A DNA stretch of 64,000 nt from Candidatus Microgenomates bacterium (GTDB lineage Bacteria > Patescibacteriota > Microgenomatia > UBA1406 > HO2-37-13b): assembly GCA_025449735.1 (NCBI GenBank), contig JANWIV010000001.1, positions 12,654-76,653 on the forward strand, in the 5' to 3' direction. Below the pieces are notes generated by a model. The model searched no databases and was not told the origin of the DNA. It worked only from the letters and a program-made list of their open reading frames with translations. The translations under genes were made by a program, and so were the position numbers. Positions 6,218 to 63,458 of this stretch are shown in pieces (positions within the stretch are counted from its first letter, which is position 1; each line of letters starts with the position of its first letter).

Positions 6218-6219
6218 TG

Positions 6220-10214: not shown

Positions 10215-10931
10215 TCAATTATAGCGCTTCATTTCAAAAAAAAGACGCAAATCACCAACAATTTTTTCACGGATTAAATCAAGGATATTATAATTCGAAG
10301 TTCCCCAAATTCTTGGATAATGAGATACTGGCACCTCAGCGAATGTAGCTCCGGATATTTGAAGTTTTTTTACGAGCTCCGGCAAAATTGATGAATCAGT
10401 ACTATCTAATTTTATTTTTGCAAGCCTCGACTTTCTAATTAGCCTGAAATCGCAATCGACATCGCGGACTGGAAGCTGAAGAATTGTTTTGCTAAATTTA
10501 GCATACAGATTACCTAAGAGAACTCGAATAAAAGCATCTCTTCTGGATTTTTTATATCCATTAACGACATCGACATTAGTCTTCTGCTGTTTTTCTACTA
10601 GGTGCTCCAAATCAGTTTCTAAATGGTACTGAGCGTCGCCATCAGTATAAAAAATCCATTTCTTATTGGCATTTGCAAAACCGTGTTTTATGACCGCATA
10701 ACCTTCCTGATTGCGAGATCTATCAACTATCTTTAGATTTGGATAAATAGACTTCATCTCTTTGATTCTTTGAGTAGTTTTATCCTGGGACCTGCCGCCG
10801 ATAATAGCAATTACCTGCAGATTATCTGTCATTCGTCGTCCGATGCTATATGCCAAGTGAATTTGTCGAGATACAGTTCCTTCATCGTTTAAAAAGGGAA
10901 AAAAAATAGATAAGCTTTCAAGTTTTTTCAT
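10215..10931 (-). CDS. Glycosyltransferase family 2, DPM1/polyprenyl-phosphate sugar synthase-like, soluble form
   Basis: 238 aa. LSIFFPFLNDEG start and YTDGDAQY DxD-type motif. No C-terminal TM helices. Confidence 0.65.
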   Translation of the reverse strand: MKKLESLSIFFPFLNDEGTVSRQIHLAYSIGRRMTDNLQVIAIIGGRSQDKTTQRIKEMKSIYPNLKIVDRSRNQEGYAVIKHGFANANKKWIFYTDGDAQYHLETDLEHLVEKQQKTNVDVVNGYKKSRRDAFIRVLLGNLYAKFSKTILQLPVRDVDCDFRLIRKSRLAKIKLDSTDSSILPELVKKLQISGATFAEVPVSHYPRIWGTSNYNILDLIREKIVGDLRLFFEMKRYN

Positions 10932-12039: not shown

Positions 12040-12044
12040 ACTAT

Positions 12045-12593
12045 TTAATCTCGTTTTGGTTTCCAAAAATCGCGACCCAAAGAATCCCAAGGAATTCTTT
12101 TTTCGTCGGCTTTTTTTAAATTAAATTGTTGATTGACAAAGACATAAAGCTCAACTGGTTTGCTCGTAAAAATTGCCGAACCATGTGCTACCCCTTTTGG
12201 AATATAAAGCATATGAGCACTGCCGCCACCAAGGACCACTCTCATCGTCTTGCCGACTGAAGGCGACTTCGTTCTTACATCCCACAAACCCGCCAATAGG
12301 TGGTCAAGCGGACTAACATACCAAATTTCATCTTGGCGATAATGAAGATGCCAAGCTTTAATAGAGCCGGGGATAAGTGTTGTTCGATTAATTTGGGCCA
12401 GTTTAAAACCCTTTATATTTTCAAGATTGCCGTTTTTTATTCGTAGTATTTCGGAGAAATCACCCTCTTCTGCAGGAATGTTTTTCAAATCGATTATTCT
12501 TACTCCTTCAATATTTTCTTGTTCACTATAATCAGCCGGGTAAATTAATTTAGAAGCATCAAGAACAATATCTTTGGCAGTAAGGTTTTTCAT
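12045..12593 (-). CDS. RmlC-like cupin (NDP-4-keto-6-deoxyhexose 3,5-epimerase family)
   Basis: 182 aa. AWHLHYRQDEIWYV, LYIPKGVAHG and RIPWDS correspond to the RmlC core motifs. Confidence 0.65.
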   Translation of the reverse strand: MKNLTAKDIVLDASKLIYPADYSEQENIEGVRIIDLKNIPAEEGDFSEILRIKNGNLENIKGFKLAQINRTTLIPGSIKAWHLHYRQDEIWYVSPLDHLLAGLWDVRTKSPSVGKTMRVVLGGGSAHMLYIPKGVAHGSAIFTSKPVELYVFVNQQFNLKKADEKRIPWDSLGRDFWKPKRD

Positions 12594-12627
12594 CAGAGCT
12601 CCATTGTATCAAATTACGCGCCATATG

Positions 12628-14415: not shown

Positions 14416-14426
14416 AGACAATAAGC

Positions 14427-14432
14427 TATAAT
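14427..14432 (+). promoter_or_regulatory. -10 box TATAAT, 9 nt upstream of ATG 14442
   Basis: gctataattgcctccatATG. The divergent gap to the family B gene start (14415) is only 26 bp. Confidence 0.4.
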
Positions 14433-14441
14433 TGCCTCCAT

Positions 14442-15176
14442 ATGAAGCAAAATGAATATTACACTATGTTTGCCGTTGAAGATAGTCATTTTTGGTATCG
14501 AGGAATGAAACAAATCACCAGCACTCTTATCAAAAGCAATTTTAAAAAAAATCAGAAATATAAAATCCTTGATGCTGGCTGTGGTACTGGCGCTGGCATG
14601 ATAGCACTTTCAAAATTTGGCGAAGTTGCAGGTGTTGACTATTCGCCTCTCGCGATTGAACTTTGCAAAAAAAGGGGACTCAAAAAAGTTTCTGTTGCCA
14701 GTATCGAAAAATTGCCTTTCAAAAACTCCTCATTCGATCTAGTCATTTCCTCTGATGTGTTGGGCCAAATGGAAGTAAATCAGGATATGACGGCAATTAA
14801 TGAATTCTATCGAGTGCTAAAACCTGAGGGAATTTTGATTTTGCGAACCGCTGCTTTCAATTGGCTATACAGCTATCATGACCGTGCGGTCCATACTAAA
14901 CATCGCTATACAGATAATGAACTCAAAGCGCTTCTTAAGAAAGGCAAATTTAAAATAATAAAAACTACCTATGCGAATATGTTTCTCTTTCCAATATCCT
15001 TTATTCTAAGAATAGCCAGTAACTTTTTGAAGATTGAACCAAAAAACTCTGATGTCAAACCCTTGAATCCCATTATCAATCAGCTTTTTTATTTTCCTTT
15101 TTTTATTGAAAACCAACTTATTAAAAGGGGCTCTCTTCCTTTTGGCTTATCGATCATCATGGTAGGTAAAAAATAA
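14442..15176 (+). CDS. Class I SAM-dependent methyltransferase
   Basis: 244 aa. Motif I ILDAGCGTGAG. Confidence 0.8.
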   Translation: MKQNEYYTMFAVEDSHFWYRGMKQITSTLIKSNFKKNQKYKILDAGCGTGAGMIALSKFGEVAGVDYSPLAIELCKKRGLKKVSVASIEKLPFKNSSFDLVISSDVLGQMEVNQDMTAINEFYRVLKPEGILILRTAAFNWLYSYHDRAVHTKHRYTDNELKALLKKGKFKIIKTTYANMFLFPISFILRIASNFLKIEPKNSDVKPLNPIINQLFYFPFFIENQLIKRGSLPFGLSIIMVGKK

Positions 15177-15183
15177 AGGTAAA

Positions 15184-17388
15184 TTATTCCAGTCTCATCT
15201 TTCTCACATTTGCTGATAAAGCTCGATTGTCAAAACCTTGCCCATACTCAGAGGGCTTGTATGATGAGGAAAATTCAAAGGTAATGCTGTGGATGCCGGG
15301 TAGTACCTTAATAGGAATCCGGAATTCCTGCCAATTTTCTGTTAATTTAATTGTCGCCATCTTTTGATTATCAACCTTCACTGTCATTGCTTGAGGGGTT
15401 TGGAAAGTTATCGCTTCGATTATAAGACTTCTTGTGATATGTTTATTTATGAGCCGAACGCTAGCCAGCTTATCAACGATCCAACGGTGATCACCCTCAT
15501 TCACACCCCAACCATCAACTAATAGAGAATCGACATATTGGCTCTCAGCAAAGTCGATTTGGGATAAATCCTCAACGTTATTAAGAAGACACTTGTCACT
15601 GATACATAGAGAACCTAATTTATAGTAATTATTCTCCCAAACTACCTTATTAAAAAGTAGGTTGCTAGGAATAATATACTTTACTACTTTTGAAATCAAA
15701 ACAAGATCATCATCCTTAATTTTATTATTACTCTGTGCATATTCGAGACTAGTGATGAAATTGACCTTATCGCCTAAGAAGTACTCCGCCCAAAGCTCTT
15801 TCCAAATTGGCAAATCGGGGTTAAATATTTGTTCTGAATAAATAATTGAGTCTTCAGTGAGTTTTGGCATGTCAGACAGAATAGTCATCCAGCGATCAAC
15901 TGCTAAATTTTCACGCCAGTAGCGCTTCATCAGCAATCCATTATTGATGAAACTTATCCAAACAATTACCACCAAAATATAAGGAATTAAATGTTTTTTT
16001 GACTGTAATAAACTTACTAAGCCAATCATAAGTAAGGTTATGAGAATTGGTGCCCCATAAGAAACCGCTCGATCATAAAACCAGAAATTGGGCCGCACCA
16101 AGCTTAGGAGCAGGATGAAAAAACCATAGGTAGCAACAAAACTACTCATAAGAATATTATTGTTAGACTTTTTGGCACCATACAATATCATTCCAATTAC
16201 TCCCAGGCTTAAAATTATGGAAATAATTATTGGTAGTGATGGCAAACTATGGATGCTATATAAGCCTGTCATCTCAAATGGACTGATAAAGGAGCTACCT
16301 GATTGACGAAACGCCTGCCAACCTACCTCCGCGTTAAAGTCACCGGTTCGATAAAATATCGCAAAACGTATTGAATGAATAATCGCTGGCCAAGCCAGTA
16401 AGAAAGTTAAAAAAAGAGATTTAGAATAGGCTACGGTCCACACTAAACTTTTTTGCTTTGAGAAAATATGAAATAAGGCAATAATCCCTATTGGGATTAA
16501 TATAAATACTGCCGCTTCATGATATGAAAAAAATATCACTGAAAGGACTACTGAAATTAAAAAGTCATGACGATTAAATATAAGGCTTACTTTTTCCTGC
16601 TTTTTAAGGATCTTCTCATAACTGATAAGCAGAATAGTAACCAGGAGTGACAACCCGAGGAAAATAATTTGTCCGATAAAGTTGTGATAAAGATAATAGA
16701 TAATATTAACATTAGTTCCTACTAAAATTGCTGTTACTATTGCGACGAAGTTATTCTTTTCTCGATTTAATAAATTAAACAGAATATAAATCAGCGGCAT
16801 CGCCGCTGCAAAAAGCACCGTCTGAATTATTGTCAGGAGTTGATAACCAGCAAGACCTAACAACTGTTGAAAAAATGCCATCAAGACTGATGGGCCAACA
16901 CGCCACCCAAAAGAAAATAAAGTATGGACTTCAAAGTTAGTTTGCTCCTCAAAGGCTTGGCGCACCGAATGAGTCAAAAGATAATCAGGGACGGCGGCAA
17001 ATGCCTTAGCATCATTTCCTCCTAGTGAAAGTGTGGTTAAGAATCGTTGCTGTAATAACATTGGCAGCAGATTAAGCAAAACTAATACTAAAGCAAGGGC
17101 GAAAATAATCTTGGTAGACAAATCGACTTTCGGCAATCCAAACTTTACAATTACGTAGATTGAGCTCAAAATCATGGTTGTTGTCAAGATGATTACAATC
17201 AACTTCGTACTTAAACCGAGACTACCTAAAATAACCATCGAAAAAATGACAGCAATAACTGTTACCCAGGGCGAGATCGGTAATGAATACGGTTGTAATT
17301 TTTTCGGTAATAAGAGTCGACTAATACCGTAACCTAAGAAATAAAATACGAAAAATAGAATCACTGGATAAATGATTGCAGATTCCAT
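15184..17388 (-). CDS. Polytopic membrane protein, paralog family A, with C-terminal module
   Basis: 734 aa. LGGNDAKAFAAVPDYL and FGWRVG motifs. Tail DGWGVNEGDHRW...DNRALSANV. Confidence 0.6.
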   Translation of the reverse strand: MESAIIYPVILFFVFYFLGYGISRLLLPKKLQPYSLPISPWVTVIAVIFSMVILGSLGLSTKLIVIILTTTMILSSIYVIVKFGLPKVDLSTKIIFALALVLVLLNLLPMLLQQRFLTTLSLGGNDAKAFAAVPDYLLTHSVRQAFEEQTNFEVHTLFSFGWRVGPSVLMAFFQQLLGLAGYQLLTIIQTVLFAAAMPLIYILFNLLNREKNNFVAIVTAILVGTNVNIIYYLYHNFIGQIIFLGLSLLVTILLISYEKILKKQEKVSLIFNRHDFLISVVLSVIFFSYHEAAVFILIPIGIIALFHIFSKQKSLVWTVAYSKSLFLTFLLAWPAIIHSIRFAIFYRTGDFNAEVGWQAFRQSGSSFISPFEMTGLYSIHSLPSLPIIISIILSLGVIGMILYGAKKSNNNILMSSFVATYGFFILLLSLVRPNFWFYDRAVSYGAPILITLLMIGLVSLLQSKKHLIPYILVVIVWISFINNGLLMKRYWRENLAVDRWMTILSDMPKLTEDSIIYSEQIFNPDLPIWKELWAEYFLGDKVNFITSLEYAQSNNKIKDDDLVLISKVVKYIIPSNLLFNKVVWENNYYKLGSLCISDKCLLNNVEDLSQIDFAESQYVDSLLVDGWGVNEGDHRWIVDKLASVRLINKHITRSLIIEAITFQTPQAMTVKVDNQKMATIKLTENWQEFRIPIKVLPGIHSITFEFSSSYKPSEYGQGFDNRALSANVRKMRLE

Positions 17389-17390
17389 GA

Positions 17391-19631
17391 TTATTTTGAA
17401 TCCAACAACTCGATAAATTCAAATTCAGCGGCAGTCAACCCATCGTCATTAACCGAATCAAAAAAGAAATGAATCTCATTGATTCCTGGATTTAGTTTGT
17501 TGTTAGTATCAATTTTATAGCTACTGTTTTTAGGCGTTAATAATAATTGACCGATATTTTTTTTATTGACATCTATTGAGACGGATTTTGGCCTTTCAAC
17601 ATGCGTTATAAAACGTAGAGTCATATCTCGCTTTTTTGTTAACTTCATCATTACTGAGGCCTTTTTTTCGGCCAATCGAAATTGCCCCTCTTTTTCCTGC
17701 CATCCCATGCCTAAATAGGTCACTAAATTAGGCGTATCAAAATCAACTTTCAAAAACTCCCGATTTTTAGGAGGCCTCATCAGCAAGGAAAATCGCCCGT
17801 CAGTCATCATTTCCTTAAAACCAAGGTCTATTAGCGTTTTGCTAACCGTGTCAGAATAAATTTCTTTGTTATCAACAATGACGTATTTAATATCAAGGAA
17901 ATCAATAACCAATAAGGCGCTCTGTTTGTCCAGAGTTGACCATTTTGATAGCTCCTTTTGATCGATAATTGGATTTTTAGAAACATTTGAGTCCATAGCT
18001 CGACCAAGATAGCCAAGAAACGGATTGCGATAATAATAGGCCCGTTTATAATCGGCGATTCTCCCGGTGTAACCACCGATTATTGGTTTACCATGATAAG
18101 ATTCGCCGACAATGCCGGATACGGCATCTTCATCACCAAAATAGGTAAAGCCATCGCGTACTGTGAAAGGAATTTCCATCACCGTTGAAAAAGAAGGGTC
18201 TTTGGCAATAGTTTCGTAGATTTTGTATGGATAGTCGACATCTGGAGGTGTTAAATTACTTACATAGCGTTGATCAAAAATAAATACTAAAAGCAGTGCA
18301 CCAAAAAACAAGCTACGAAAAAAGCTCGATCGCTTTCTGATTAAATATTCAAAAACATATGCAACGGTAATATATGCAAAGAAAATAAATGCGACGACCA
18401 GTCGACCTGGCACACGAATATTTTCGAAAAGTGGTATAAAATGAAGCAAAACATAAGGCATTGGAATAACTAATTTAATAGTGTCATCTAAATAGTAACC
18501 GCCTCTTCCAAATACATGCAGAAATGGTCCCAATGTCAGCACAAAAAAAACAATCGTAACAAAAAAGAATGGCTGAGATGGTTTCATTTTTACCCTGTGG
18601 CCTTTTTTTAAATGAAGGATTGAGTAAAGTACAAGCCCAATGAGAATAATTAATCCCGGATAAACAAAGTTTTCAAAGGCACCTTCGGCAAAATGAGCAT
18701 AAGTTTTAACTATTTTTTCATACAAATCCGGATAATAATTATTTATGTAGTGATTGTAGCCACTAGGTACAAGAAAGGAAAATAAGTCAGCCGAAAAATC
18801 AATCGCCCCACCCCAACCAGGTAAGCGCGGAATGCTCTCAAACTTTATCCCCTCATAAACTCCTTTGATCCAGGGAATAAGAAGAAGAATTATAAAAAGG
18901 ACCGTCCTTAATAAGTCGAGCCACCTTTCCTTTAATTTAATAAACAATTGCTTTTTTGCAATCGTTAAGTAATAAATAAGGAAGGCTCCAATCGATATTA
19001 CAATCATGATGAAATAGTAAAAATTAGTCCAAAGAGATAAAGCAAAAAAAACTGCCGCTCCAAGTCCACTCACAATTCTTGTTGATGCCTCCTTTGAGAT
19101 GAGTAGTGAATAGCCACACAAATAAAACCAAGGGAAAACATAGATCATGAAATAGTTCAGATGCCCTTGCCTGACTGCCAAAAAAGTCATATAGCCAAAG
19201 GCGAGTGCTATTATAAAAGACACCATTTTACTTATCTGAAATTTCCTCAGTAACAAATACATACCAATATTTGCCATCAGCTGACTGAGCGCCATGATAA
19301 TTGAGAAGCTAGTATAGGATGAGAAGAAAGGTCTCAAAGGAAGATAAAACAATCCATTACCAGCATCAGTTAAACCAATTTGCAGCCGAAAAGGATAGAG
19401 CATACCAGTATAAAAACCAAAGGGATTTTGTCCAGCAACGATTGCCTCATAAAATTTATTTGTTAACCATTCATAAACTCTAACCTCCCCCCAAATAGAC
19501 CCGTTTGTTGAGCTGTCAAAAAAAATCTGACTCCAAAAAAGGCTGCCATTAAACCAGAAGCTAAAAAAGAGAAAGCCAAACAATACAAACCAAATTGATC
19601 TTTTATCTATGTATTCGCTAATTTTTATCAT
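17391..19631 (-). CDS. Polytopic membrane protein, paralog family B, with C-terminal module
   Basis: 746 aa. NPFGFYTGMLYPFRLQIGLTDAGNGLFYLPLRPF and VMEIPFTVRDGFTYFGD. Tail GMGWQEKEGQFRL... Confidence 0.6.
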   Translation of the reverse strand: MIKISEYIDKRSIWFVLFGFLFFSFWFNGSLFWSQIFFDSSTNGSIWGEVRVYEWLTNKFYEAIVAGQNPFGFYTGMLYPFRLQIGLTDAGNGLFYLPLRPFFSSYTSFSIIMALSQLMANIGMYLLLRKFQISKMVSFIIALAFGYMTFLAVRQGHLNYFMIYVFPWFYLCGYSLLISKEASTRIVSGLGAAVFFALSLWTNFYYFIMIVISIGAFLIYYLTIAKKQLFIKLKERWLDLLRTVLFIILLLIPWIKGVYEGIKFESIPRLPGWGGAIDFSADLFSFLVPSGYNHYINNYYPDLYEKIVKTYAHFAEGAFENFVYPGLIILIGLVLYSILHLKKGHRVKMKPSQPFFFVTIVFFVLTLGPFLHVFGRGGYYLDDTIKLVIPMPYVLLHFIPLFENIRVPGRLVVAFIFFAYITVAYVFEYLIRKRSSFFRSLFFGALLLVFIFDQRYVSNLTPPDVDYPYKIYETIAKDPSFSTVMEIPFTVRDGFTYFGDEDAVSGIVGESYHGKPIIGGYTGRIADYKRAYYYRNPFLGYLGRAMDSNVSKNPIIDQKELSKWSTLDKQSALLVIDFLDIKYVIVDNKEIYSDTVSKTLIDLGFKEMMTDGRFSLLMRPPKNREFLKVDFDTPNLVTYLGMGWQEKEGQFRLAEKKASVMMKLTKKRDMTLRFITHVERPKSVSIDVNKKNIGQLLLTPKNSSYKIDTNNKLNPGINEIHFFFDSVNDDGLTAAEFEFIELLDSK

Positions 19632-19633
19632 TA

Positions 19634-21913
19634 TTATTCAAGGGTCAAACTATAGAATTGCATTGCCAAGTCTCTATTATCAAGATTATTTGTCAAAACA
19701 ATACTCGGTTTAAATGATTTTGAGTAGACAAAATCAATTCTATTTAAGCCGCTATTTAGATTACCCTTAGTCTTGATTGTATATTGCTTCCGTTTGGTTT
19801 CTACATCGATTCCATCAAGGAATACGTCATTTAGATAAATTGATATTTCTTGCGGTAAGTGAAACGAGGCGGCTTCAAAATTAATATCTTGACTACTCGC
19901 TTTATTAGTTTTAATAAATACGGTTGACGATTTGCCCAAACCCCATCTAAATCCTCTCTCTGGCGCACTAAAATTTCTCCCGGCGAAAAGCGCGCTTTCT
20001 TTGTCGCCAAACGAGATGTTTGTAAATTCAAGGTCTTTACTTCGACGAAAATAGAGACTATGAGAGCCATCCTCCATAACTGACTTAAAGCCTAACTCAA
20101 TCAATTTCTCTTGAATAATCTGAGAGTATAACTCATCATTTTTGACAATGACATAATTTATATCTAACAATTCAATCTCCTCTAAAAGCATTTCGTTTGA
20201 TGCTAAAAATTGACTAACACTCGGCGTTTTTGCTGGTTCTTTATACAAATGAAAATTTCCTTTATCAATTATTTTCCCAATGTGACCAATAAAGGGAAGG
20301 GCGCGGTAATAATCAAAAATCGCGCTGTCAATTCGCGATAAATAGCCTCCAATAATTGGGTGCTCATGGATCATCGCACCACGCATAATCTGCTGAGCGT
20401 GCACATCTCCCATATACTGCAAACCATCTCGCAACACAAATGGCACCTCCAGCACCGTGCCACCAGTTTGGTGATTATTGATATATTGATAAGTCTCAAC
20501 TGGTAATTCCGCTGGAGCACGATTAGGGACAAAATATGTCTGATCAACAATGAAAATGAGTAAAACAAGTATAAAAAATTTCAGCAATTTCTCTTTTTTC
20601 AAATGGTCGCTAATAAATTGGAAAATAAAAGCAGCAAATATTGAACCAAAAAATACCGTGCCGGTTATGAATCGAGAAGGGGCGGAGATGATATCAAAAA
20701 AGGGTATAAAATGAAGCGCTAAGAAAGGCAAAGGAAAGTAGATTGGAATTTCTTCGGGCAAAATTATATACCACTTGTTAAAAACCTTAAGTAGTGGCCC
20801 TAAAGAAAGAATGGCAAAGATGATTCCTGATACGGCAAAAACCTTCATGTATTGCTTGGTAATGCTTGGTATTTTTTTGCGAGCAAAGAAATAAATTACA
20901 AAGGAAACAAGAATTAAAATTCCAGGATAGCCAAATCGACCCCAATTGCCTTCAAAAAAAACTGACAATTTCGCGAGTAAAGAATTTTTGTTTGAGATAG
21001 TGTCAAAGATATAATTATAAAGCGGATTAAATTCACTGGGGAATAATAAATTCATCAAGTCGGAAGAGAGAGTCAACGGTCGAACAATTCCTTTGAGCTC
21101 TGGCAATCTATTTCTCATCAGATATTCATTGGCCGACAAAATCCATGGTAATAAAAATACCAAAAATGACAATATAGAGATCGGTACTAATCCCAAATTT
21201 GCGACCATAGTGCCAATGGCTCTTTTCTTAAAGTAAACAAGAGAGCAAACAAAAAGCAGTAAACTACCGATTACTGCCGTAATGAAGTAGTAAGGATTAG
21301 CATAGTAAAGACCCGCCCAGACAGCGCCCCAAAATATTGAGAATAGCACTCGTTGACGATTTGAATTATTGTTTAGAATCGAATGTCCAATCAGCATCAG
21401 CAGCGGAAAAAAATAAGTGGCTGTATAGGTCAAATGCCCTAAAACTCGATAAGAAAGATACGGCGAAAAGCCATATATTAGAGCGCCAATCATTGATGCA
21501 AAGTTTGATAATTTAAATCGTCTCAATAGCAAATACATAACTAAATTTCCTAATGCGATGTTAAAAAGTACAATTAATTGAGTCGCTTGGTGAATATCAA
21601 GTAGGGGACGAAGTACAAAAAGAAACGGTACATTGATAAAAGAAGTATCTTGAAAAGCAAAATTGGTTTCGAACGGATACAAAACTTTTGTAGTCGTAGC
21701 AAACGGGTTATTGAAATGAGACAAACTTTTATATTCAGTTTCCGTCAGAAACTCGGTCACCACTCCGTCATCAATTGGAATTGTCATCGAGTCATATAAT
21801 ATGACGTTTCGCAGAATTTGAAAATTGAAAACTATTGTAAGTAAAGAAACTAGAAGCGTAAAAGCGATTTCATATCTGAATATTAGTGCTTTTTCTTTTA
21901 TCGCTTTCAACAT
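19634..21913 (-). CDS. Polytopic membrane protein, paralog family B, with C-terminal module
   Basis: NPFATTTKVLYPFETNFAFQDTSFINVPFLFVLRPL and VLEVPFVLRDGLQYMGD. Tail APERGFRW...DNRDLAMQF. The track start 21958 is TTG, so I prefer ATG 21913 (MLKAIKEK). Confidence 0.6.
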   Translation of the reverse strand: MLKAIKEKALIFRYEIAFTLLVSLLTIVFNFQILRNVILYDSMTIPIDDGVVTEFLTETEYKSLSHFNNPFATTTKVLYPFETNFAFQDTSFINVPFLFVLRPLLDIHQATQLIVLFNIALGNLVMYLLLRRFKLSNFASMIGALIYGFSPYLSYRVLGHLTYTATYFFPLLMLIGHSILNNNSNRQRVLFSIFWGAVWAGLYYANPYYFITAVIGSLLLFVCSLVYFKKRAIGTMVANLGLVPISILSFLVFLLPWILSANEYLMRNRLPELKGIVRPLTLSSDLMNLLFPSEFNPLYNYIFDTISNKNSLLAKLSVFFEGNWGRFGYPGILILVSFVIYFFARKKIPSITKQYMKVFAVSGIIFAILSLGPLLKVFNKWYIILPEEIPIYFPLPFLALHFIPFFDIISAPSRFITGTVFFGSIFAAFIFQFISDHLKKEKLLKFFILVLLIFIVDQTYFVPNRAPAELPVETYQYINNHQTGGTVLEVPFVLRDGLQYMGDVHAQQIMRGAMIHEHPIIGGYLSRIDSAIFDYYRALPFIGHIGKIIDKGNFHLYKEPAKTPSVSQFLASNEMLLEEIELLDINYVIVKNDELYSQIIQEKLIELGFKSVMEDGSHSLYFRRSKDLEFTNISFGDKESALFAGRNFSAPERGFRWGLGKSSTVFIKTNKASSQDINFEAASFHLPQEISIYLNDVFLDGIDVETKRKQYTIKTKGNLNSGLNRIDFVYSKSFKPSIVLTNNLDNRDLAMQFYSLTLE

Positions 21914-21921
21914 AGAATGTC

Positions 21922-21935
21922 CTATTATATAATAG
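21922..21935. promoter_or_regulatory. Perfect 14-bp palindrome CTATTATATAATAG giving TATAAT on both strands (back-to-back divergent -10 boxes)
   Basis: It lies in the 31-bp gap between ATG 21913 (minus strand) and ATG 21945 (plus strand). Distances from the -10 boxes to the ATGs are 10 and 11 nt. Confidence 0.5.
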
Positions 21936-21944
21936 CCTTTGAAT

Positions 21945-22886
21945 ATGAGTGACACCAATCTAATTAAAAAATATCTTCGTCCTTTTTACCGACGAACTTC
22001 TAAAAGAATGTTTAAGTTTTTAAAATTAGATGAGCTAATGGATATGTTGCTGCAAATTAATCATCGCGCTTTTACAATTGAAGAAGAGCTGCAAAAATTG
22101 AAGAAGATTCAAGCGGCAACCAATCTCATCCTTTCGGGCCAAGATTCTTATCAAAATGAACTCTACCGAAAATACGAAATCGCCCCTTTGGAAATTTTTG
22201 ATCTTAGTACGGCGATAGCCGGTGAAAGCAAAAGTGAAATTGATATTATTAATTTCATCGACCGGACGGGTCTCGATTTTGCAAATAAAACAGTCACGAT
22301 AATTGGCGGCAATAGCGATCTATACGCTCATATTTTGCAAAAAAAAGGGGCTAAAAAAATACACCGGATAGAAAGTAATCCCCAAATTTCAAAAGACATT
22401 GAAGAGAACAATGTTAGTTTTATTTATCCCTTAAACCTAGGCAAAGCTTCTCGTGAACATTGTGACATCTTACTTATTCCAAGCGCTAGTTGGACCACGC
22501 TATTATCCTCACGTAGCTTTGCCGGGTTTGGCAGCTTTGTTAAGGAGTCGATTATACTTCAGTCTCGAGTCAATTCTCAAACTTCATATAGCTCAAGCTT
22601 AGAACCGGCTATATTTGATGACGACGGCCGACTTAGTTTGAATGATAATTATTTAAGGCGACAATTACATTTAAGCGGTTTTGTTGAAGTTGAATGCATT
22701 TATACAGAAGGAGTTTATATTGATAACTATTTTGATTTGAAGGTAACTAAATTTAATCAATTGAATGGATTTACCATAATTAAAAAAAATAGAAGACCAA
22801 CTAAGGATCAGTTACTAAAAATAAAAGACTCAACAGAGAAGATATATATTGGTCGAAAACTTCCCAGTAAAAAATACCTTTCATGA
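21945..22886 (+). CDS. Hypothetical protein (coiled-coil N-terminus, Rossmann-like middle)
   Basis: Long ORF. The track start 21939 is TTG and the first ATG is 21945. VTIIGGNSDLYAHILQKKGAKKIHRIE looks like a nucleotide-binding strand-loop, but no clear family motif is present. Confidence 0.5.
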   Translation: MSDTNLIKKYLRPFYRRTSKRMFKFLKLDELMDMLLQINHRAFTIEEELQKLKKIQAATNLILSGQDSYQNELYRKYEIAPLEIFDLSTAIAGESKSEIDIINFIDRTGLDFANKTVTIIGGNSDLYAHILQKKGAKKIHRIESNPQISKDIEENNVSFIYPLNLGKASREHCDILLIPSASWTTLLSSRSFAGFGSFVKESIILQSRVNSQTSYSSSLEPAIFDDDGRLSLNDNYLRRQLHLSGFVEVECIYTEGVYIDNYFDLKVTKFNQLNGFTIIKKNRRPTKDQLLKIKDSTEKIYIGRKLPSKKYLS

Positions 22887-26792: not shown

Positions 26793-28772
26793 CTAATTGT
26801 TAGATCTTTTCAATTTATATATCTCTAAGATGCCTGCTGTTTTATCAAATTGATAGAATGGTTTTGTCGCTTCAAACAGTTCATTTGCACCTTGGTATGA
26901 AGAGGGGGTCGGAAACTGCGGATAATTTTTATCGACAAATATGTATTCTGGTTTAGGATCCATATTGATTAGCGTTTTTTTAGCTTTTTCCAATTCACTT
27001 TGATAATAAAATTGCTCCATCATTGGTACTGGTAGCAGTTGGGTTTTCTCCGCCATGACAAGAATTACGGTATCAAATTGAGAAAATAAAAGAATTTTTT
27101 TTTCACCTGATGACAGTTTTTTTATTGCTGATACTGATTCGAATAATTCGTTCACCGTTCGTCCCGCATCTTCGTTGTAGGAGACCACATAAAAAGCACG
27201 ATTGCCGGGATACTTTTTTGAAATCTTTACCTGATTGTAGGCATAGGAGCGATATTCAATTCTTTTAGCTAAGTAATATGTACTAAAGCAGAATATTGCG
27301 ATAAAAGAAATAAATATCGTTATCTTAATTAGCTTTGAAAAGTTGTCCTTAAAATTTGACAGTTGGTCAAAAAAAATAATTAAAATAAGCAAAGCCGGCA
27401 AAATAACCACTGGCAAATTCGAACTGACACTACGGCTAATATAATAATTAAAAAGCATCAAACCATATCCAGCAAGACCAGCTGTGGCAGCATATATCCA
27501 GTTAAACGGTTTTTTACTAACAAATATTTGATTTAGAGAAAGAATGATAGTCAAAAAATAAATAGCCAAAATTGGCAAGTGCAAACCGAGGACTGGGGTT
27601 TTGACATTAGAAATTCCTTCTTGTGCTAAATAAACAAACTTAAAAAAGAAATTCCAGTTTGGCCAAGAACCAGAAACAGCTAATGTATAGATTGAAAAAA
27701 TTACAAAAACAAGAACTAAAGAGGTTAAGAAAAATGATGATTTTTTAAGAAAGAAAATAAGTCTCGCTTTTAGCGATAATTCATATTTTGATAAGGAGGC
27801 AAACAAAGTAAATGACATCAGCCCAATCGACAAAGCCAGACCTGTCTCTAAATTGTAAAGAACCGAGCCGGTCGTCAAAAAACAAGCAATTACAAATAGG
27901 GGAGTGGAAGATAAATTTTTATTCTTGTAAAGCAGATAAAATACCGGGATATCTAGAAAATATCTAAGCACGGTTGCTCCGGGCCAGACATAATTTTCCG
28001 ACACCGGATAAGTCGGGTAATTAAAAAGGGTAGTTACACCCATCATAATAAATAACCCGAAAAGACAAAGCAACTTATTCTGAGTCACGCGAAGCAAGAA
28101 AAAATACAAGAAAAAATAGTAAATCATCGTGACGACCATAAATACAAAATAAAGATTCATGTAAGAAAATGGGATTACAAATTGAAACAGTTTGTATAGC
28201 ACAAAAGGTAGTAGCATTCCATATTGGCTATATGTGTCAACCAACAGATGTTTGCCGGCAAACAAGTCATTGATGGTGGCGATAATAAAATTATGATGGT
28301 AATAATTAATCCAAATCCCAGTCTCAAGCAAGTAGCCAAAATTGAAAAGGACAACAAAAATCAGCAACATTGCCACTGCTAAATGATTTTTATTTAGAAA
28401 GTTTTTTATTGGTGAAATTTTCTTTTCTATCTTTAAATACTGATTACGCATACCAAAACCAAATTTCGGTAGTTTAAAAGAGAGATTTATATCTTTTTTA
28501 AAGAATCGACTTAACTTCATCGATAACAGAATCGTTACAATCGGTATGAAAATCAAAGACAGGTTATAAAATAATTTAAAATACCTCTTAGGGTTAAATT
28601 CTTCATGCCGCCATGAAACTAATTGCGTCCGATCGATACGATTCATTGACTCCTCAACGCCTAAATATTTCAAAACAATATAAATTACTCCCAAAATTAA
28701 TACTGATAATAAAAAACTGAATACAAGAACTAAAATTGATGAAGAAATTCGAATAGAATTATTTTTTTGCAT
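26793..28772 (-). CDS. Polytopic membrane protein (third type, unrelated by eye to families A/B) with C-terminal soluble domain
   Basis: 659 aa with many hydrophobic helices and a C-terminal hydrophilic domain of about 150 aa. The stop lies 3 nt from the convergent methyltransferase. Confidence 0.5.
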   Translation of the reverse strand: MQKNNSIRISSSILVLVFSFLLSVLILGVIYIVLKYLGVEESMNRIDRTQLVSWRHEEFNPKRYFKLFYNLSLIFIPIVTILLSMKLSRFFKKDINLSFKLPKFGFGMRNQYLKIEKKISPIKNFLNKNHLAVAMLLIFVVLFNFGYLLETGIWINYYHHNFIIATINDLFAGKHLLVDTYSQYGMLLPFVLYKLFQFVIPFSYMNLYFVFMVVTMIYYFFLYFFLLRVTQNKLLCLFGLFIMMGVTTLFNYPTYPVSENYVWPGATVLRYFLDIPVFYLLYKNKNLSSTPLFVIACFLTTGSVLYNLETGLALSIGLMSFTLFASLSKYELSLKARLIFFLKKSSFFLTSLVLVFVIFSIYTLAVSGSWPNWNFFFKFVYLAQEGISNVKTPVLGLHLPILAIYFLTIILSLNQIFVSKKPFNWIYAATAGLAGYGLMLFNYYISRSVSSNLPVVILPALLILIIFFDQLSNFKDNFSKLIKITIFISFIAIFCFSTYYLAKRIEYRSYAYNQVKISKKYPGNRAFYVVSYNEDAGRTVNELFESVSAIKKLSSGEKKILLFSQFDTVILVMAEKTQLLPVPMMEQFYYQSELEKAKKTLINMDPKPEYIFVDKNYPQFPTPSSYQGANELFEATKPFYQFDKTAGILEIYKLKRSNN

Positions 28773-53686: not shown

Positions 53687-54349
53687 TCAAAAAAGCAAAT
53701 CCTTTATTTCTTTAAGCCTTCGTTGGTAATCAACTTGGTCAAATACAAACTGCTTATATTTTTCAGGTTTCTTAAAATATTCCATGATATCTCTAGTTTC
53801 AATATAGTTGTATTGAAAACCACCAATATAGGTCCCAAAAGAGCTTCTTGGTTCATTAGCTAATTTTTCAATCTCGATTAAATATGAAGTAACGTGATTT
53901 AAATGTATATAACGAGATGTATGAATAAACTGTTCAACTGACTCAATCCGAACCGCCTTGAATGGATGGATAAAAAGACTTCCTTGCCGCTCATTCTTGA
54001 TATTGAAATATTTAGCAAAACTATTTTGAAAGTTTGAGATAAATTGTGAAATTCCACCTGTTTTCAGTTGTTTTAGCAAAAAATGCCAATGATTAGGCAT
54101 AAGTGAAAATGCGTGTATTTCGAGTAGTTGATCTTCAACGCTTCTTTTCCTTAGTATTTCATGCTGAACATCTTGACTTGAGTTCAGAAACGAAGATAAA
54201 CTGAAAGAGTTTGAATAACGATAATAATCCATTATTTCTATTGCTTTTTTCACGTTTCTTTTTCCATCAAAACTTATCTCCCTCCCAACCGTCTTATTAA
54301 ATACATGATAAAATTCCCCATTAGCAAATATTGTTTTTCTACCTAACAT
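53687..54349 (-). CDS. IS200/IS605-type Y1 HUH transposase homolog, REP-associated tyrosine transposase (RAYT)-like
   Basis: GEFYHVFNKTVGRE..F start, HUH motif MPNHWHFLL, GSLF..PFKAV, and catalytic Tyr region SRYIHLNHV. Palindromic repeats flank it on both sides. Confidence 0.75.
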   Translation of the reverse strand: MLGRKTIFANGEFYHVFNKTVGREISFDGKRNVKKAIEIMDYYRYSNSFSLSSFLNSSQDVQHEILRKRSVEDQLLEIHAFSLMPNHWHFLLKQLKTGGISQFISNFQNSFAKYFNIKNERQGSLFIHPFKAVRIESVEQFIHTSRYIHLNHVTSYLIEIEKLANEPRSSFGTYIGGFQYNYIETRDIMEYFKKPEKYKQFVFDQVDYQRRLKEIKDLLF

Positions 54350-57939: not shown

Positions 57940-58917
57940 ATGACAAAAATCATTGTCATTACCGGACCTACCGCGACTGGCAAAACTGCCTTTGCGCTAA
58001 AGCTTGCCAAGCGCATTAACGGTGAGCTAATCAGCGCCGACTCTAGACAGATTTATAAAGGTCTTGATATTGTGACTGGCAAAGATATCCCCAAAAAGGC
58101 AGAATTCTATATTGATAAAAAACTTTCAATTATATCCTCAAAAAATGTCCGCAGTAGTAAAATGGTTATGGGATATTATTTGGCAAATTCTATTCCAATT
58201 TGGCTTTATGATGTCGTCTCACTACGGGAATATTTTTCCTCGTATGATTTCGCTCGTATGGCGCGAGAAGTAATTACTGATATTTTAACTCGCGACAAAA
58301 CTCCAATCGTTATCGGTGGTAGCTACCTATATATCAAACACTTAATTTATGGCCTTGATACTGATGGCATTCCTCCAAATTGGATTGAAAGAGAAAAGTT
58401 AAAAGATTCTTCAGTCACAGAACTTTTTGAAATATTAAAGTCGATTGATCTCAAAACTGCTTCTGTTCTCAATCAATCAGACAAAAACAATCCCCATCGC
58501 TTAATGAGAAAGATTGAACTGGCAGAATACCATCGTCATTCTGGTAAGCCGAAGGCGCATCCAGAATCTCAAGGGGATCCTGGACAGGCCAGGATGACCT
58601 ATCCACTAGGTCAATTTATTGGGCTTAAATTCAAAAACAAAGAAGCCCTTGACCAATTAATTAGGCATAGAGTAGAGGAGCGAATAAAAGCAGGAGCAAT
58701 TGAAGAAATTAAGCAATTACTTGAGAAAGGTTACTCCAAATCTGATCCAGGACTTTGCACTATCGGAGCGAAACAAATTATTGATTATTTATCGGGCAAA
58801 ACAACCTTTGATGAAATGGAATCTTTATGGACCACTGCTGAGACCCAATATGCCGGTCGCCAAATGACCTTTATGAAAACCGACCAGAATATAAAATGGC
58901 AGATTGTAAAAAAATAA
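57940..58917 (+). CDS. miaA: tRNA dimethylallyltransferase
   Basis: P-loop ITGPTATGKTAFAL, ISADSRQIYKGLDIVTGK, and GGSYLYIKHLIYG. A repeat-derived segment lies at 58534-58599. Confidence 0.85.
   Translation: MTKIIVITGPTATGKTAFALKLAKRINGELISADSRQIYKGLDIVTGKDIPKKAEFYIDKKLSIISSKNVRSSKMVMGYYLANSIPIWLYDVVSLREYFSSYDFARMAREVITDILTRDKTPIVIGGSYLYIKHLIYGLDTDGIPPNWIEREKLKDSSVTELFEILKSIDLKTASVLNQSDKNNPHRLMRKIELAEYHRHSGKPKAHPESQGDPGQARMTYPLGQFIGLKFKNKEALDQLIRHRVEERIKAGAIEEIKQLLEKGYSKSDPGLCTIGAKQIIDYLSGKTTFDEMESLWTTAETQYAGRQMTFMKTDQNIKWQIVKK
58534..58599. repeat. TGTCAT-type double-hairpin repeat (family R1) lying in frame inside miaA
   Basis: cgtcattctgg taagccgaaggcgca tccagaatc tcaagg ggatcctgg acagg ccaggatgac. 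It is translated as RHSGKPKAHPESQGDPGQARMT. Confidence 0.65.
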
Positions 58918-58939: not shown

Positions 58940-59015
58940 AAAAAATAGGTACTACCGATGGGCAAGTCGACGCGAGTCGACTTGAGGGCAGTTGAGCCCC
59001 ATCGGTAGATTTTTG
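58940..59015. terminator. Bidirectional intrinsic terminator between convergent miaA and the GC-rich secreted-protein gene
   Basis: Stem ctaccgatggg (58952-58962) / cccatcggtag (58998-59008), with a nested aagtcgac-gcga-gtcgactt hairpin. It is flanked by an A-run (58940-58946) and a T-run (59010-59014). Confidence 0.6.
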
Positions 59016-59043
59016 CCCTGCTTCAGGAGAGACTACTTATGAC

Positions 59044-60165
59044 TCAGTAGGCGAGTTCGCTTCCCACGCTCAGTGGATTGGTCGGCACTAGGTGCTCAGT
59101 CACTCCAAAGAACGAGGCGGACCCGCCATACTCCAGGAAGATGTCCGAGACCTTAGTGAATCCGATGCCCTTCATTTGATCGACGAATTCCCAGTTTTGT
59201 GAGTTGCCCGGCGTTGATGCAGCACAGAAACTGGGATTGCCAATACACCGCCAGATCTTGTGATAGGTGGTGTAGGTTGACTCATGCCACCAGAGATCGC
59301 CATCCAGAAAGGTTTCCCAGTCTGCTGGCCAAGTGCAGGTCGGTGCTGAACTAGTCGCATTCGTGGCCATGATGATCAGCGAGTGCTGGAGCCCGGGATC
59401 CGGGCACTCCCAGCTGATATCGGTGACGACGCAGTTGTTTGCAAACACCTCAAACTCTCCGCCTGGCTGATAGACAATCCAGTTGGAGAAAGTGTTTTCC
59501 TCACTCCCGTAGAACTTCATCCAGATGTTATATTGCGGTGGAGGCATACCGGCTTCGATGATTCCGATGTAGCCGGTCGCGTTTCCTGACAACCACTGGG
59601 ATACGTCCATTCCTCGATCGTTTCCACAGTACCATTCGAAGTTACCTTGATAACCAGTATCTGCCGGTACTGTTACGAGATATTCCCAGTACGGATTGGG
59701 AATGCCCTCGTACGGTCGGTTGTTATGGCACGGTGCGTTGTCAGTGAGACACCTGTAGAGGGCCACCGAATGCATGATCGGTGTGTTGAAATCGATTTCG
59801 GTCGAGGGTTCGACCGGATCACCGAATCCCGCATCAAATGGAACAAAGACACACGATGGCGTCCCGTGAGGGGGCGCCCCATTGCCGAAAAAGAGATGAG
59901 CCATCGGGATATTGAGTCCCCCATAGGCCCACGCCCAGGAGCAATCCTCCACCGTACAGTTGGTGTTGAAGAACTCCAATGGGTTAATGTCATGCTCACA
60001 GTATGGTGGAATCGTCTGCCAGCCAACAGCCCACCAGTCGGTCCAACCGTTCTCCTCGACGAAAAACTCCACATCGGGAGCGGCGGCAACGGTTCTGGCA
60101 TTGAGCCCGAACAGGGCGGCGATGACGATGAGCAGCGTTGTGATGCGAAGGATGTTTCGCGTCAT
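59044..60165 (-). CDS. Secreted Cys/Trp-rich protein with two internally homologous halves, on a GC-rich island
   Basis: About 55% GC versus about 35% around it. ATG 60165 is preceded by AGGAGG, while the track start 60186 is GTG. Signal-like ILRITTLLIVIAALFGLNARTVAAAP. LEFFNTNCTVEDCSW resembles FEVFANNCVVTDISW. Confidence 0.65.
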   Translation of the reverse strand: MTRNILRITTLLIVIAALFGLNARTVAAAPDVEFFVEENGWTDWWAVGWQTIPPYCEHDINPLEFFNTNCTVEDCSWAWAYGGLNIPMAHLFFGNGAPPHGTPSCVFVPFDAGFGDPVEPSTEIDFNTPIMHSVALYRCLTDNAPCHNNRPYEGIPNPYWEYLVTVPADTGYQGNFEWYCGNDRGMDVSQWLSGNATGYIGIIEAGMPPPQYNIWMKFYGSEENTFSNWIVYQPGGEFEVFANNCVVTDISWECPDPGLQHSLIIMATNATSSAPTCTWPADWETFLDGDLWWHESTYTTYHKIWRCIGNPSFCAASTPGNSQNWEFVDQMKGIGFTKVSDIFLEYGGSASFFGVTEHLVPTNPLSVGSELAY

Positions 60166-60446
60166 GGTTTGAGTGCCTCCTAGCACTCGGATTTTTTGTA
60201 CATGGAGTTAGACCATTCACTCATATGAATTTCAGTTTTGTTTATAGCTCTCCTGTATTGTAAAGGCGCGTATGAATCCAAAACGGCCCCACGCGGATGC
60301 AGACCATTAGATTCAAAGATGAGTAATTATAGCATAGCAACGCTCTTTTTGATAGTAAATTGATATTATAAAAAAACTATTATGCTTTGGCAAATATCGA
60401 CATCGTGAGGTGAAAAAATTTTAGACCAAAAGGAATATTTAAGAAT

Positions 60447-61427
60447 TTATTTCGCAGACAATCTTTTCAAATCAGCCTCAACCATCATCTTGACTAACTC
60501 CTCAAATCCGATCTTTGGTTGCCAACCCAATTTTTCACGCGCTTTATCAGCTCGCGCTTTAAGATCAGGCACCTCAGCTGGACGCATAAATCGAGGATCT
60601 ATCGTGACAAATGTCTCCCAATCGGCAATATCAACCGCCTTGAAGGCCATCTCGACAAATTCTCGCACCGAATGATTTTCACCAGTACCAATGACATAAT
60701 CGTCCGCCTCTTCTTGTTGCATCATGGCATACATCGCCTCGACATAGTCGCCGGCAAAACCCCAATCACGCTTAGAATCCATGTTCCCCAATCGCAATTC
60801 CTGAGCCAACCCCAATTTGATTTTCGCCACACCATCGGTAATCTTGCGCGTCACAAACTCAATGCCACGAAGTGGCGACTCATGATTAAAAAGAATCCCA
60901 TTGCAGGCATAAAGGCTATATGACTCTCTGAAATTAACTGTCATCCAATAGGCATAAACTTTACTTACCCCATAGGGGGAACGGGGATGAAACGGTGTCT
61001 TTTCATCCTGCCAGCCATCAACATTGCCCAGCCCAAACATCTCGCTTGTTGCCGCTTGATAAAATTTGGTAGTAGGGGAGAAGTGTTTAATTGCAGTCAA
61101 TAAGTATAATACTCCAAGGCCATTGGCTTCAGTGGTAAACTTCGCTAAATCCCAGCTAGAACCAACAAACGATTGGGCTGCCAAATTATAAATCTCATCA
61201 GGCCGGATGCTTTTTACTAAATTCATTAAACTCGACTCATCAGTCATGTCCCCAGTGACATATTCGATCTTATCTTCAATATCGAGATAGCTTAAATTTT
61301 CAAAGTTAGGTTTTGAATATCGCCTGATCATGCCGTAGACTTTATAATCTTTAGAGAGGAGTAGTTTCGCTAAATATGGCCCATCTTGACCCAAAATCCC
61401 AGTGACGATGGCGGTTTTTTTCTGCAT
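60447..61427 (-). CDS. gmd: GDP-mannose 4,6-dehydratase
   Basis: AIVTGILGQDGPYLAKLLL, YNLAAQSFV, YGVSKVYAYW and GILFNHESPLRG are Gmd-typical. Confidence 0.85.
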   Translation of the reverse strand: MQKKTAIVTGILGQDGPYLAKLLLSKDYKVYGMIRRYSKPNFENLSYLDIEDKIEYVTGDMTDESSLMNLVKSIRPDEIYNLAAQSFVGSSWDLAKFTTEANGLGVLYLLTAIKHFSPTTKFYQAATSEMFGLGNVDGWQDEKTPFHPRSPYGVSKVYAYWMTVNFRESYSLYACNGILFNHESPLRGIEFVTRKITDGVAKIKLGLAQELRLGNMDSKRDWGFAGDYVEAMYAMMQQEEADDYVIGTGENHSVREFVEMAFKAVDIADWETFVTIDPRFMRPAEVPDLKARADKAREKLGWQPKIGFEELVKMMVEADLKRLSAK

Positions 61428-61531: not shown

Positions 61532-61993
61532 ATGGCGCAAAACAAAAGTGTTATGTCCGCACTGAGCTCACTCGAAACTACTCTTGATCAGTATCTTGTC
61601 AAAAAAGCCCCTGCAATCCCGACAGCTTGGAAAGACGTCATTGTCAAAGTGGCGCCATGGCTCTCGCTACTTATGGTAATTGTATCAATCCCGGCAATTT
61701 TAGTGCTCTTTGGTATAACCGCATTTGTCTTACCTTTTAGTATGTTCGCCGGACCCTATGCACCAGCGGGGATTTCAATCGCCGTCATTTTAATGATCGC
61801 AACAATCGCGCTTGAAGCGCTCGCCATCCCAGGACTTTTCAAACGAAGTCGTCAGGGTTGGAACTTCGTCTTTTGGTCAGCCTTGGTCGGGGCATTATCA
61901 AATATAATTTCTCTCAACATCGGCGGCTTTATAATCGGCACATTGCTATCTCTATATATTCTTTTCCAAGTCAAAAGCTACTATAAAGCTTGA
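61532..61993 (+). CDS. Hypothetical membrane protein
   Basis: 153 aa with 3-4 hydrophobic helices. A consensus TTGACA-17-TAGAAT promoter ends 6 nt before the ATG. Confidence 0.55.
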   Translation: MAQNKSVMSALSSLETTLDQYLVKKAPAIPTAWKDVIVKVAPWLSLLMVIVSIPAILVLFGITAFVLPFSMFAGPYAPAGISIAVILMIATIALEALAIPGLFKRSRQGWNFVFWSALVGALSNIISLNIGGFIIGTLLSLYILFQVKSYYKA

Positions 61994-62984: not shown

Positions 62985-63458
62985 ATGAACATAAGTGAAT
63001 ACGGATATATAGTTGGCCATACAGTTTTCTATACCTCGGCGTTTCTGTTCATCGCATTCTTGTTGTCGATGGTTCGTTTTAAGGTTGAACGCGACGCGGT
63101 AACCGCATTAGAATTCTTTGCCTTCCTTTCAGTTGGCCTAGGCCTTCTGTCTGGATGGCTGGGTTTATACTATGCCTCAGCACTCTTGATCGGGACTGGT
63201 ACAGGCATCCTCAGCCTTTACTACATCGGATGGAGGTTTATTGCTCTTTCATACATCAATGAGGAAAAAACCAAAGCTGACGCTGTAAATGTACAGATGC
63301 TTGAAGAAGAGGAGTCTGTCGACAGCCAAATCGACAACCCAGTGTTGGCTGAGGAGGAAAAAACCAAAGTTGACGCTTCAACGACTCCCGAACAAGAGAC
63401 GGAAGAGGCACCTGTCGACAACCAAGCCGCCAACCTGGCGCTAGCTGAGGAACAATGA
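62985..63458 (+). CDS. Membrane protein with acidic tandem-repeat C-terminal tail
   Basis: 157 aa with three N-terminal helices. AGGAGG lies upstream. The tail contains two copies of EEKTK(A/V)DA...VD(S/N)Q...LAEE. Confidence 0.55.
   Translation: MNISEYGYIVGHTVFYTSAFLFIAFLLSMVRFKVERDAVTALEFFAFLSVGLGLLSGWLGLYYASALLIGTGTGILSLYYIGWRFIALSYINEEKTKADAVNVQMLEEEESVDSQIDNPVLAEEEKTKVDASTTPEQETEEAPVDNQAANLALAEEQ
63261..63449 (+). repeat. Intragenic tandem duplication (two units of about 93-96 bp)
   Basis: Units start with gaggaaaaaaccaaag(c/t)tgacgct at 63261 and 63354. Both contain ctgtcgaca(g/a)ccaa and end in (t/a)(g/-)gctgag. Confidence 0.7.

Follow-up and report, generated by a model that had tools for sequence, protein, structure and literature searches.

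The question raised by this locus is whether a gene that differs sharply in composition from its surroundings is native to the genome in which it lies or was brought in from elsewhere, and what its product might do. The locus is part of a stretch of 64,000 nucleotides (nt) of contig JANWIV010000001.1 from a Candidatus Microgenomates bacterium, called the window below. Within the window, between miaA and gmd, lies a GC-rich island with one long open reading frame (ORF), the island gene (Table 1). An original prediction, made from the letters of the sequence, had described it as a horizontally acquired gene for a secreted protein of two domains. The reading favored here, with a probability of about 0.65, is that of a foreign one-gene insert in the miaA/gmd junction, led by a Shine-Dalgarno (SD) sequence and encoding a Sec-exported protein of two modules. 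Horizontal acquisition itself is well supported by the sequence, as the gene is at the compositional extreme of the window, carries an SD sequence in a lineage nearly devoid of them, and is missing from the same junction in syntenic relatives. The locus would thus represent a well-delimited, recently imported gene for a secreted protein in a candidate phyla radiation (CPR) genome, with an empty-site control in relatives.

Table 1. Coordinates of the Island Gene, Its Signals, and Neighboring Features (Window Positions Unless a Relative Is Named)
Feature	Position	Strand	Basis or remark
Compositional island, GC 54.3% versus 39.9% in flanks	58955–60189	.	Maximum-likelihood two-boundary GC fit
Orphan secreted-protein coding sequence (island gene), 373 aa	59044–60165	−	ORF listing; stop codon included
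SD sequence AGGAGG	60176–60181	−	10 nt 5′ of ATG; in loop and upper stem of small hairpin 60166–60193
Putative Sec-type signal peptide, residues 1–28	60082–60165	−	Sequence inspection by eye
Module A, residues 29–207, 7 Cys	59545–60081	−	Collinear alignment with module B
Module B, residues 208–373, 5 Cys	59047–59544	−	Collinear alignment with module A
Sigma-70-type promoter-like site TTGCCA-17 nt-TATAAT	60365–60393	−	Consensus match 11/12; about 200 nt 5′ of ATG
Second candidate promoter, extended −10 box TGCTATAAT	60326–60334	−	Edge of GC-rich block; read from sequence
Nested GC-rich hairpin, putative bidirectional intrinsic terminator	58952–59008	.	11-nt and 9-nt perfect inverted repeats I4, I8
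miaA, tRNA dimethylallyltransferase, native left flank	57940–58917	+	Pfam IPPT, E 4e-47
gmd, GDP-mannose 4,6-dehydratase, native right flank	60447–61427	−	Pfam GDP_Man_Dehyd, E 2e-121
ORF for 157-aa membrane-like protein, acidic tail	62985–63458	+	No Pfam match
IS200-like Y1 transposase ORF	53687–54349	−	Pfam Y1_Tnp, E 8e-7; GC 31%
Pair of FG-GAP-repeat proteins in tandem (866 and 1043 aa)	L031 1266–7008		Signal-peptide-like N-termini, native composition, SD-less starts

Composition of the Island Gene

The island gene is the extreme of the window in GC content, in codon usage, and in tetranucleotide signature, the last two being checks that had been suggested with the original prediction. Its GC content is 54.2%, compared with 38.5% for the window; other ORFs of the window average 38% GC (z = 4.1), and 1122-nt sliding windows elsewhere have a mean of 38.1% (sd 3.6) and a maximum of 48.4%. 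A jump from about 35% to about 55% had been described. The jump is confirmed, but the neighboring genes stand at 38% (miaA) and 43.5% (gmd) rather than at 35%. The GC content at third codon positions (GC3) is 0.65, while the rest of the window has a mean of 0.355 (sd 0.055, maximum 0.50; z 5.4) and the loci of relatives range from 0.23 to 0.46. Scored against pooled native usage, the synonymous codon log-likelihood of the gene is −0.148 versus 0.081 ± 0.032 (z −7.1). In composition-normalized tetranucleotide usage, the island correlates with the remainder of the window at 0.27, compared with 0.645 ± 0.107, and ranks last among 135 windows (z −3.5); its raw 4-mer distance has a z of 9. Many native genes of comparable GC content had been named as an argument against foreign origin; the 64-kb window does not contain them.

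The encoded protein is also unusual. Trp accounts for 4.8% of its residues (native maximum 2.7%) and Cys for 3.2% (native maximum 2.0%), while Lys and Arg together make up 2.9% (native minimum 5.1%); with 7.8% Pro and 8.6% Gly, the original description of a protein with many Trp, Cys, Pro, and Gly residues is accurate. Synonymous codon use suggests a donor genome of about 52%–56% GC, and the higher-GC donor that had been proposed is likewise deduced from composition alone.

The GC content of the window is itself uneven, climbing from about 33%–36% in the first 30 kb to 43%–47% beyond 60 kb, with a block of 40%–47% at 40–46 kb that covers genes for a thiamine pyrophosphate (TPP) enzyme and an aminotransferase. 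This drift indicates that the native background is heterogeneous too. The gene could be native and old, its odd composition being a product of amino-acid content or selection without any transfer: the drift of the window from 34% to 47% would speak for such an origin, and its content of Gly, Pro, Ala, Trp, and Cys lifts GC at codon positions 1 and 2. However, the anomaly is greatest at synonymous third positions, where the gene exceeds the maxima of both the window and the relatives. Moreover, the gene uses an SD sequence in an SD-less lineage, syntenic relatives have no such gene at the same junction, and the protein searches found no homolog in any CPR genome. A native origin is very unlikely on this evidence.

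Coding Status and Start Site

The frame of the island gene opens with an ATG at 60165 and continues without frameshift to the stop codon at 59044–59046. These positions, and the AGGAGG read from 60181 to 60176, agree with the gene and ribosome-binding site as first called. The GC content by codon position, 0.51/0.47/0.65, is what a genuine gene of a moderately GC-rich genome would show. When the segment was shuffled 2000 times with its dinucleotides preserved, one shuffle reached a stop-free run of the observed length (p about 0.0005). The public gene call for the same protein (P0001, 380 aa) starts at a GTG at 60186, which is the less likely start because it lies upstream of the SD sequence.

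Structural RNAs often appear as GC-rich stretches of AT-rich genomes, and several long shadow ORFs are present in the island, so the block might be non-coding, a structured RNA or some other GC-rich element in which the ORF has arisen by chance. The claim that long shadow ORFs occupy all six frames was an overstatement; stop-free runs measure 387, 197, 162, 81, 74, and 64 codons, and three of the frames are long. A scan of the island and its flanks gave no Rfam match at E ≤ 1, and 300-nt pieces fold no better than shuffled sequences (z −0.7 to −2.2). The improbable length of the ORF, the codon-position periodicity, the well-spaced SD sequence, and the signal-peptide N-terminus all indicate a protein-coding gene, and a non-coding origin of the block is extremely improbable.

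The miaA/gmd Junction in Related Genomes

The proteins nearest to the miaA product are annotated as Candidatus Roizmanbacteria, Microgenomates, or Patescibacteria and show no more than 51% identity, which places the contig in a Roizmanbacteria-like lineage of the CPR (Microgenomates) that has been little sampled. Membership of the CPR fits the premise of the original prediction that the organism may be an episymbiont. The informative relatives are the contigs that encode the top protein matches, designated L031, L033, L034, and L038. Among the miaA loci of GTDB genomes and Joint Genome Institute (JGI) metagenomes, 30 were returned, none with the miaA/gmd junction.

L033 and L034 derive from a Roizmanbacteria genome and have miaA (+) and gmd (−) as convergent neighbors, with a hairpin-rich spacer of 178 nt between them, and in L038, with a GC content of 38.1% like that of the window, the two genes abut and are likewise convergent. 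The surrounding gene order is shared: L038 has o51423, o52148, o54502, o55603, miaA, and gmd in common with the window, and L033 has the TPP enzyme, a nucleoside triphosphate transferase, o54502, miaA, and gmd. The gmd of the window has a host-style start without an SD sequence and is 73%–77% identical to the gmd genes that adjoin miaA in the relatives, with 73%–74% in the comparison of gene order with L038 and L033. The empty junction in L033, L034, and L038 indicates that the ancestral state of the clade was one of convergent and adjacent miaA and gmd, and that the gene in the window is an insertion into this conserved junction. A survey of the junction in related genomes had been proposed as a check on transfer; the gene is absent from the junction in these three relatives and in L031.

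With a miaA 51% identical, L031 is the nearest of the relatives and has the same frame of flanking genes with other cargo in the slot, namely the two FG-GAP-repeat proteins listed in Table 1. The junction has thus been used at least twice for genes of putative extracellular proteins. Like the island protein, the FG-GAP proteins have signal-peptide-like N-termini and occupy the space between miaA and gmd, which suggests that the slot hosts extracellular proteins. They differ from it in size and show no sequence similarity to it (best blastp E 2.3); their genes also differ from the island gene in having native composition and native SD-less starts, and in lying in the opposite orientation.

The left side of the miaA neighborhood also differs between the window and L038. 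The segment 55970–57926, between o55603 and miaA, encodes an epimerase, a peptide deformylase, and a tRNA-binding protein and has no counterpart in L038, where a single ORF of 280 aa is found instead; the neighborhood is rearranged on this side too. The IS200-like Y1 transposase ORF, which at 4.7 kb is the transposase-like gene closest to the island, was not found at the matching position of the syntenic L038.

The contig derives from a metagenome, and the GC-rich block could in principle be an assembly artifact, in which a piece of a GC-richer organism was joined into a CPR contig. The search of sequencing runs yielded one low-depth soil run (X1), with six 151-nt records at 100% identity, five from host DNA and one from the island gene, all at depth 2–4. 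None of them spans either border, and the sole island record, perfect over 141 nt, ends at 59265 in 10 unmatched bases (TCTCTCTCCC), observations that would be compatible with a chimera; the unmatched bases may also be a read-end artifact or a variant (depth 2). The records nevertheless show host and island with equal and very low coverage. The block lies inside the contig and is flanked left and right by DNA of one lineage, as seen from miaA on the left and from the identity and start of gmd on the right. Its edges correspond to a terminator and an SD sequence, functional signals rather than arbitrary points, and it is improbable that two false joins would enclose exactly one complete gene. 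An artifact of assembly is therefore hardly to be expected here.

Initiation and Expression Signals

An SD-like motif is absent from 49 of the 56 long ORFs of the window and from 35 of the 36 genes in the loci of three relatives (L031, L033, and L038). Many ORFs of the window have a TATAAT-like box 5–9 nt 5′ of the ATG, a sign that the mRNAs may be leaderless or nearly so, and initiation of this type may be the norm in the Roizmanbacteria-like lineage. The full AGGAGG precedes two of the 56 ORFs, the island gene and ORF 62985–63458. The argument that the initiation style points to transfer is therefore real, and stronger than it was originally made, since a gene with a canonical SD sequence lies in a lineage with almost none. 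The locus provides a built-in contrast between a donor-style SD start and host-style, SD-less, probably leaderless starts.

The region upstream of the gene (60190–60446) is AT-rich and of host composition, and contains the sigma-70-type promoter-like site. Judged by comparison with native upstream regions, the second candidate, TGCTATAAT, resembles the TATAAT boxes ahead of native genes. As gmd lies directly upstream on the same strand, read-through into the island gene is also possible. The structure of the leader is not significant (z −1.1). On the 3′ side, the hairpin at 58952–59008 folds with −38.8 kcal/mol (z −3.9). Behind it come a U-run (minus strand) and a T-run (plus strand), and it can thus serve miaA and the island gene alike as a terminator; the bidirectional terminator described earlier is borne out. 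The empty spacer of L033 (7970–8147, identical in L034) holds two GC-rich hairpins, and also a run of GTTACACG-like repeats (CTGTTACACGTTTCACGTAACGCGTTACACGTATCACATTACAC). GC-rich hairpins are thus native to the empty spacer, and the hairpin of the window may be the original shared terminator; the imported DNA would then begin just to its right.

The same signals bear on whether the gene is used at all. It could be a foreign but silent passenger that landed recently in a harmless convergent slot, is not usefully expressed, and will decay. Such a view is in keeping with a protein cluster of one member from one contig, with a composition that has not been ameliorated, with a host lineage practically without SD-led initiation, with an SD sequence partly sequestered in a hairpin, and with a convergent junction as the least disruptive landing site. 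On the other hand, the ORF of 373 codons is intact and free of frameshifts, and it is bounded by a near-consensus promoter-like site on the 5′ side and a strong terminator on the 3′ side. Anti-SD loss among CPR bacteria has been described chiefly for a subgroup of Parcubacteria and not for Microgenomates (PMC9297842), which makes SD-led translation plausible in this lineage. A silent passenger is a possibility to be kept in mind, if an unlikely one. If the gene is expressed, the lineage would still be able to use SD-led genes, and the protein (345 residues, soluble) would be a tractable candidate for a new extracellular fold; if it is silent, the locus would be an ordinary orphan islet.

Putative Export Signal and Possible Modular Structure of the Protein

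Inspected by eye, the N-terminus of the protein resembles a signal peptide, with an n-region (MTRNILR), an h-region (ITTLLIVIAALFGL), and a c-region (NARTVAAA), and a putative cleavage site of the AXA type before AP. Hydrophobicity peaks are confined to residues 5–29. A lipobox is not present, the first Cys occurring no earlier than residue 56; there is no RR pair and no twin-arginine motif, and no sortase signal at the C-terminus, which is polar. After residue 30, the highest Kyte-Doolittle score over 19 residues is 0.83, which indicates that the protein has no membrane anchor, as had been stated. The mature protein would have 345 residues and is acidic (pI 4.1), with 16% aromatic residues, 18 Trp, and 12 Cys. 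All 12 Cys lie beyond the signal peptide, seven in the first half and five in the second.

The two halves, modules A and B, align collinearly over their full length with 24% identity and similar Cys spacing. They share the motifs EEN..W, E.F..NC.V.D.SW, P.C, RC......C, and WE, and the motif pairs quoted originally are present at residues 63–77/238–252 and 135–146/303–314. The statistics are less favorable to the claim of two homologous halves. The best local score between the modules was reached by 18 of 2000 shuffles, or by 96–106 of 2000 with other gap costs (p about 0.009–0.05), and hhalign detected nothing between the halves. A tandem duplication is plausible, and on balance probable. Structure prediction with AlphaFold2 gave unusable models, both for the full protein (pLDDT 32) and for module A with module B as alignment (pLDDT 34).

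Search for Relatives of the Island Protein

No homolog of the island protein was found in about 15 billion proteins, apart from the protein itself and a weak match to a second protein, P0002. A word-index search of 5.8 billion clusters returned only the protein itself, and a profile of the two modules returned nothing. An exhaustive phmmer search of 1.84 billion representatives recovered only the protein itself and P0002. Its cluster has no other member and comes from one contig; such singletons are frequent among metagenomic proteins. There was no match in Pfam (whole protein and six sub-domains), NCBIfam, PHROGs, or PADLOC, and no homolog in scans of IMG/VR and JGI metagenomes. Searches of PDB sequences with the whole protein, two sub-domains, and the two-module profile gave chance-level hits (E 0.35 or worse), and the best tblastn match to plasmids and phages had an E of 0.4.

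P0002 is a surface protein of 1409 aa with nine Listeria-Bacteroides (Flg_new) repeats, each of which weakly matches residues 81–140 of the island protein (24–35 bits pairwise). Its pooled E of 2e-9 arises because one weak similarity is multiplied over nine nearly identical copies. Residues 81–140 and the nine repeats share the gap-free pattern GG...P...F.FD...DFNTPI...V.LY, a likeness to PF09479. In contrast to the island protein, however, the Listeria-Bacteroides repeats are not Cys-rich. Alignment of profiles to Flg_new with hhalign gave a probability of 41% over 33 columns of a repeat of roughly 65 residues, falling to 34% when the second module was added. With these values, and with no match of the Pfam model at E ≤ 10 to either the protein or the sub-domain, membership in Flg_new (PF09479) was rejected. 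The resemblance is a lead rather than an indication of membership.

Two further candidates were considered and set aside. The modules end in Y/W-[KR]-C-[LI]...P...W-E-x-[VL], a pattern in an aromatic-rich context that resembles the end of the chitinase carbohydrate-binding module (CBM) of family 5/12, YKCLQPH...W-Q-L, a comparison that the searches did not support: as a type-3 chitin-binding module, CBM5/12 gave no Pfam match to the protein or its sub-domains, and no chitinase or CBM chain was found in the PDB at E ≤ 10. A likeness to a beta-gamma-crystallin-like motif was not supported by any profile or PDB search.

Possible Functions

A life attached to other cells is presumed for CPR bacteria, and few of the proteins that bring the attachment about are known. 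The original prediction had offered the island protein as a candidate for host interaction, as an adhesin or a toxin, and such roles are conjecture here too. The putative tandem modules, rich in aromatic residues, the surface proteins that L031 carries in this slot, and the sugar-nucleotide genes nearby led us to conjecture a lectin- or adhesin-like binding protein at the cell surface, an idea that we put forward tentatively. A bolder proposal would make the protein the first sampled member of an unrecognized family of disulfide-locked, Trp-rich extracellular binding modules, taken up by a Roizmanbacteria-like episymbiont from its GC-richer host or an unsampled soil organism, with the miaA/gmd junction of the clade as a recurrent landing place of surface-protein cassettes that tune host attachment; we consider it a long shot.

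The protein might instead be a secreted antagonistic effector, a disulfide-rich product of the bacteriocin or toxin kind. Predicted secretion, a high Cys content, compactness, and horizontal acquisition are properties that it would share with many secreted toxins. Yet no immunity gene or dedicated exporter adjoins the gene, no toxin family was matched in Pfam, NCBIfam, or PADLOC, and the strongly acidic pI is unlike that of most membrane-active peptides. An effector role is unlikely.

Neighboring Features

After the island gene, ORF 62985–63458 has the highest GC3 in the window (0.50) and the second most atypical codon usage; the third most atypical is that of ORF 61532–61993 (+). More foreign genes may lie in the DNA on the right of gmd, which in the relatives is followed instead by Polysacc_synt and PMT_2 genes.

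Toward the left end of the window, eight large ORFs of 597–774 aa lie at 4004–21958 and 26793–28772 (−), each with 8–14 hydrophobic segments. Pfam matched none of the five that were scanned at 1e-5. Seven of the eight fall into two paralogous subfamilies (25%–39% identity). Together they look like the products of a family expansion among polytopic membrane proteins, at a locus with many sugar-nucleotide genes.

A Model for the Insertion and Comparison with Known Transfers

In the model that we propose, roughly 1.2–1.3 kb of foreign DNA with one complete gene would have been inserted at the convergent miaA/gmd junction of a Roizmanbacteria-like genome. Transcription would start at the promoter-like boxes in DNA of host composition, or come from gmd by read-through, and translation would depend on SD pairing, the donor-style SD sequence having been retained. 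The product, predicted to consist of two divergent copies of a module of roughly 170 residues, would leave the cell through the Sec pathway, lose its signal peptide by cleavage after residue about 28, and be released as a soluble, acidic extracellular protein of 345 residues stabilized by up to six disulfides.

Several observations weigh against this model. Neither a donor nor a homolog was found in any collection searched. The relatives with an empty site are distant (miaA 49%–51% identical). The borders of the island have no mark of mobility: no integrase was found there, no tRNA gene lies within the window, and as a target-site duplication only AT-rich 18-mers matching at 13 of 18 positions flank the island, which is unconvincing. 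A small hairpin partly pairs the SD sequence, in a host that rarely uses one. The signal peptide is a call made by eye, shuffling and hhalign lend the build of two modules little statistical weight, and the function is conjectured from composition and context alone.

On present evidence, the locus is a sound but unremarkable islet of horizontal gene transfer that carries an orphan without a place in any family. Patescibacteria are documented to carry islands and genes transferred one at a time, which make up as much as 13% of genome length (PMC12455944). In that groundwater survey, transfers were inferred from homologous pairs of donor and recipient, whereas the collections searched here contain neither; the borders of the present island are also unlike those cases in having no mobility gene or repeat. 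What raises the locus above the routine is the empty junction of the relatives, the repeated use of the slot for putative extracellular proteins, and the contrast between SD-led and SD-less starts. In other respects, it is much like the transfers described for Patescibacteria, with a deviant gene placed between conserved neighbors in a streamlined CPR genome and, as in those transfers, an accessory function that may be related to the cell surface.

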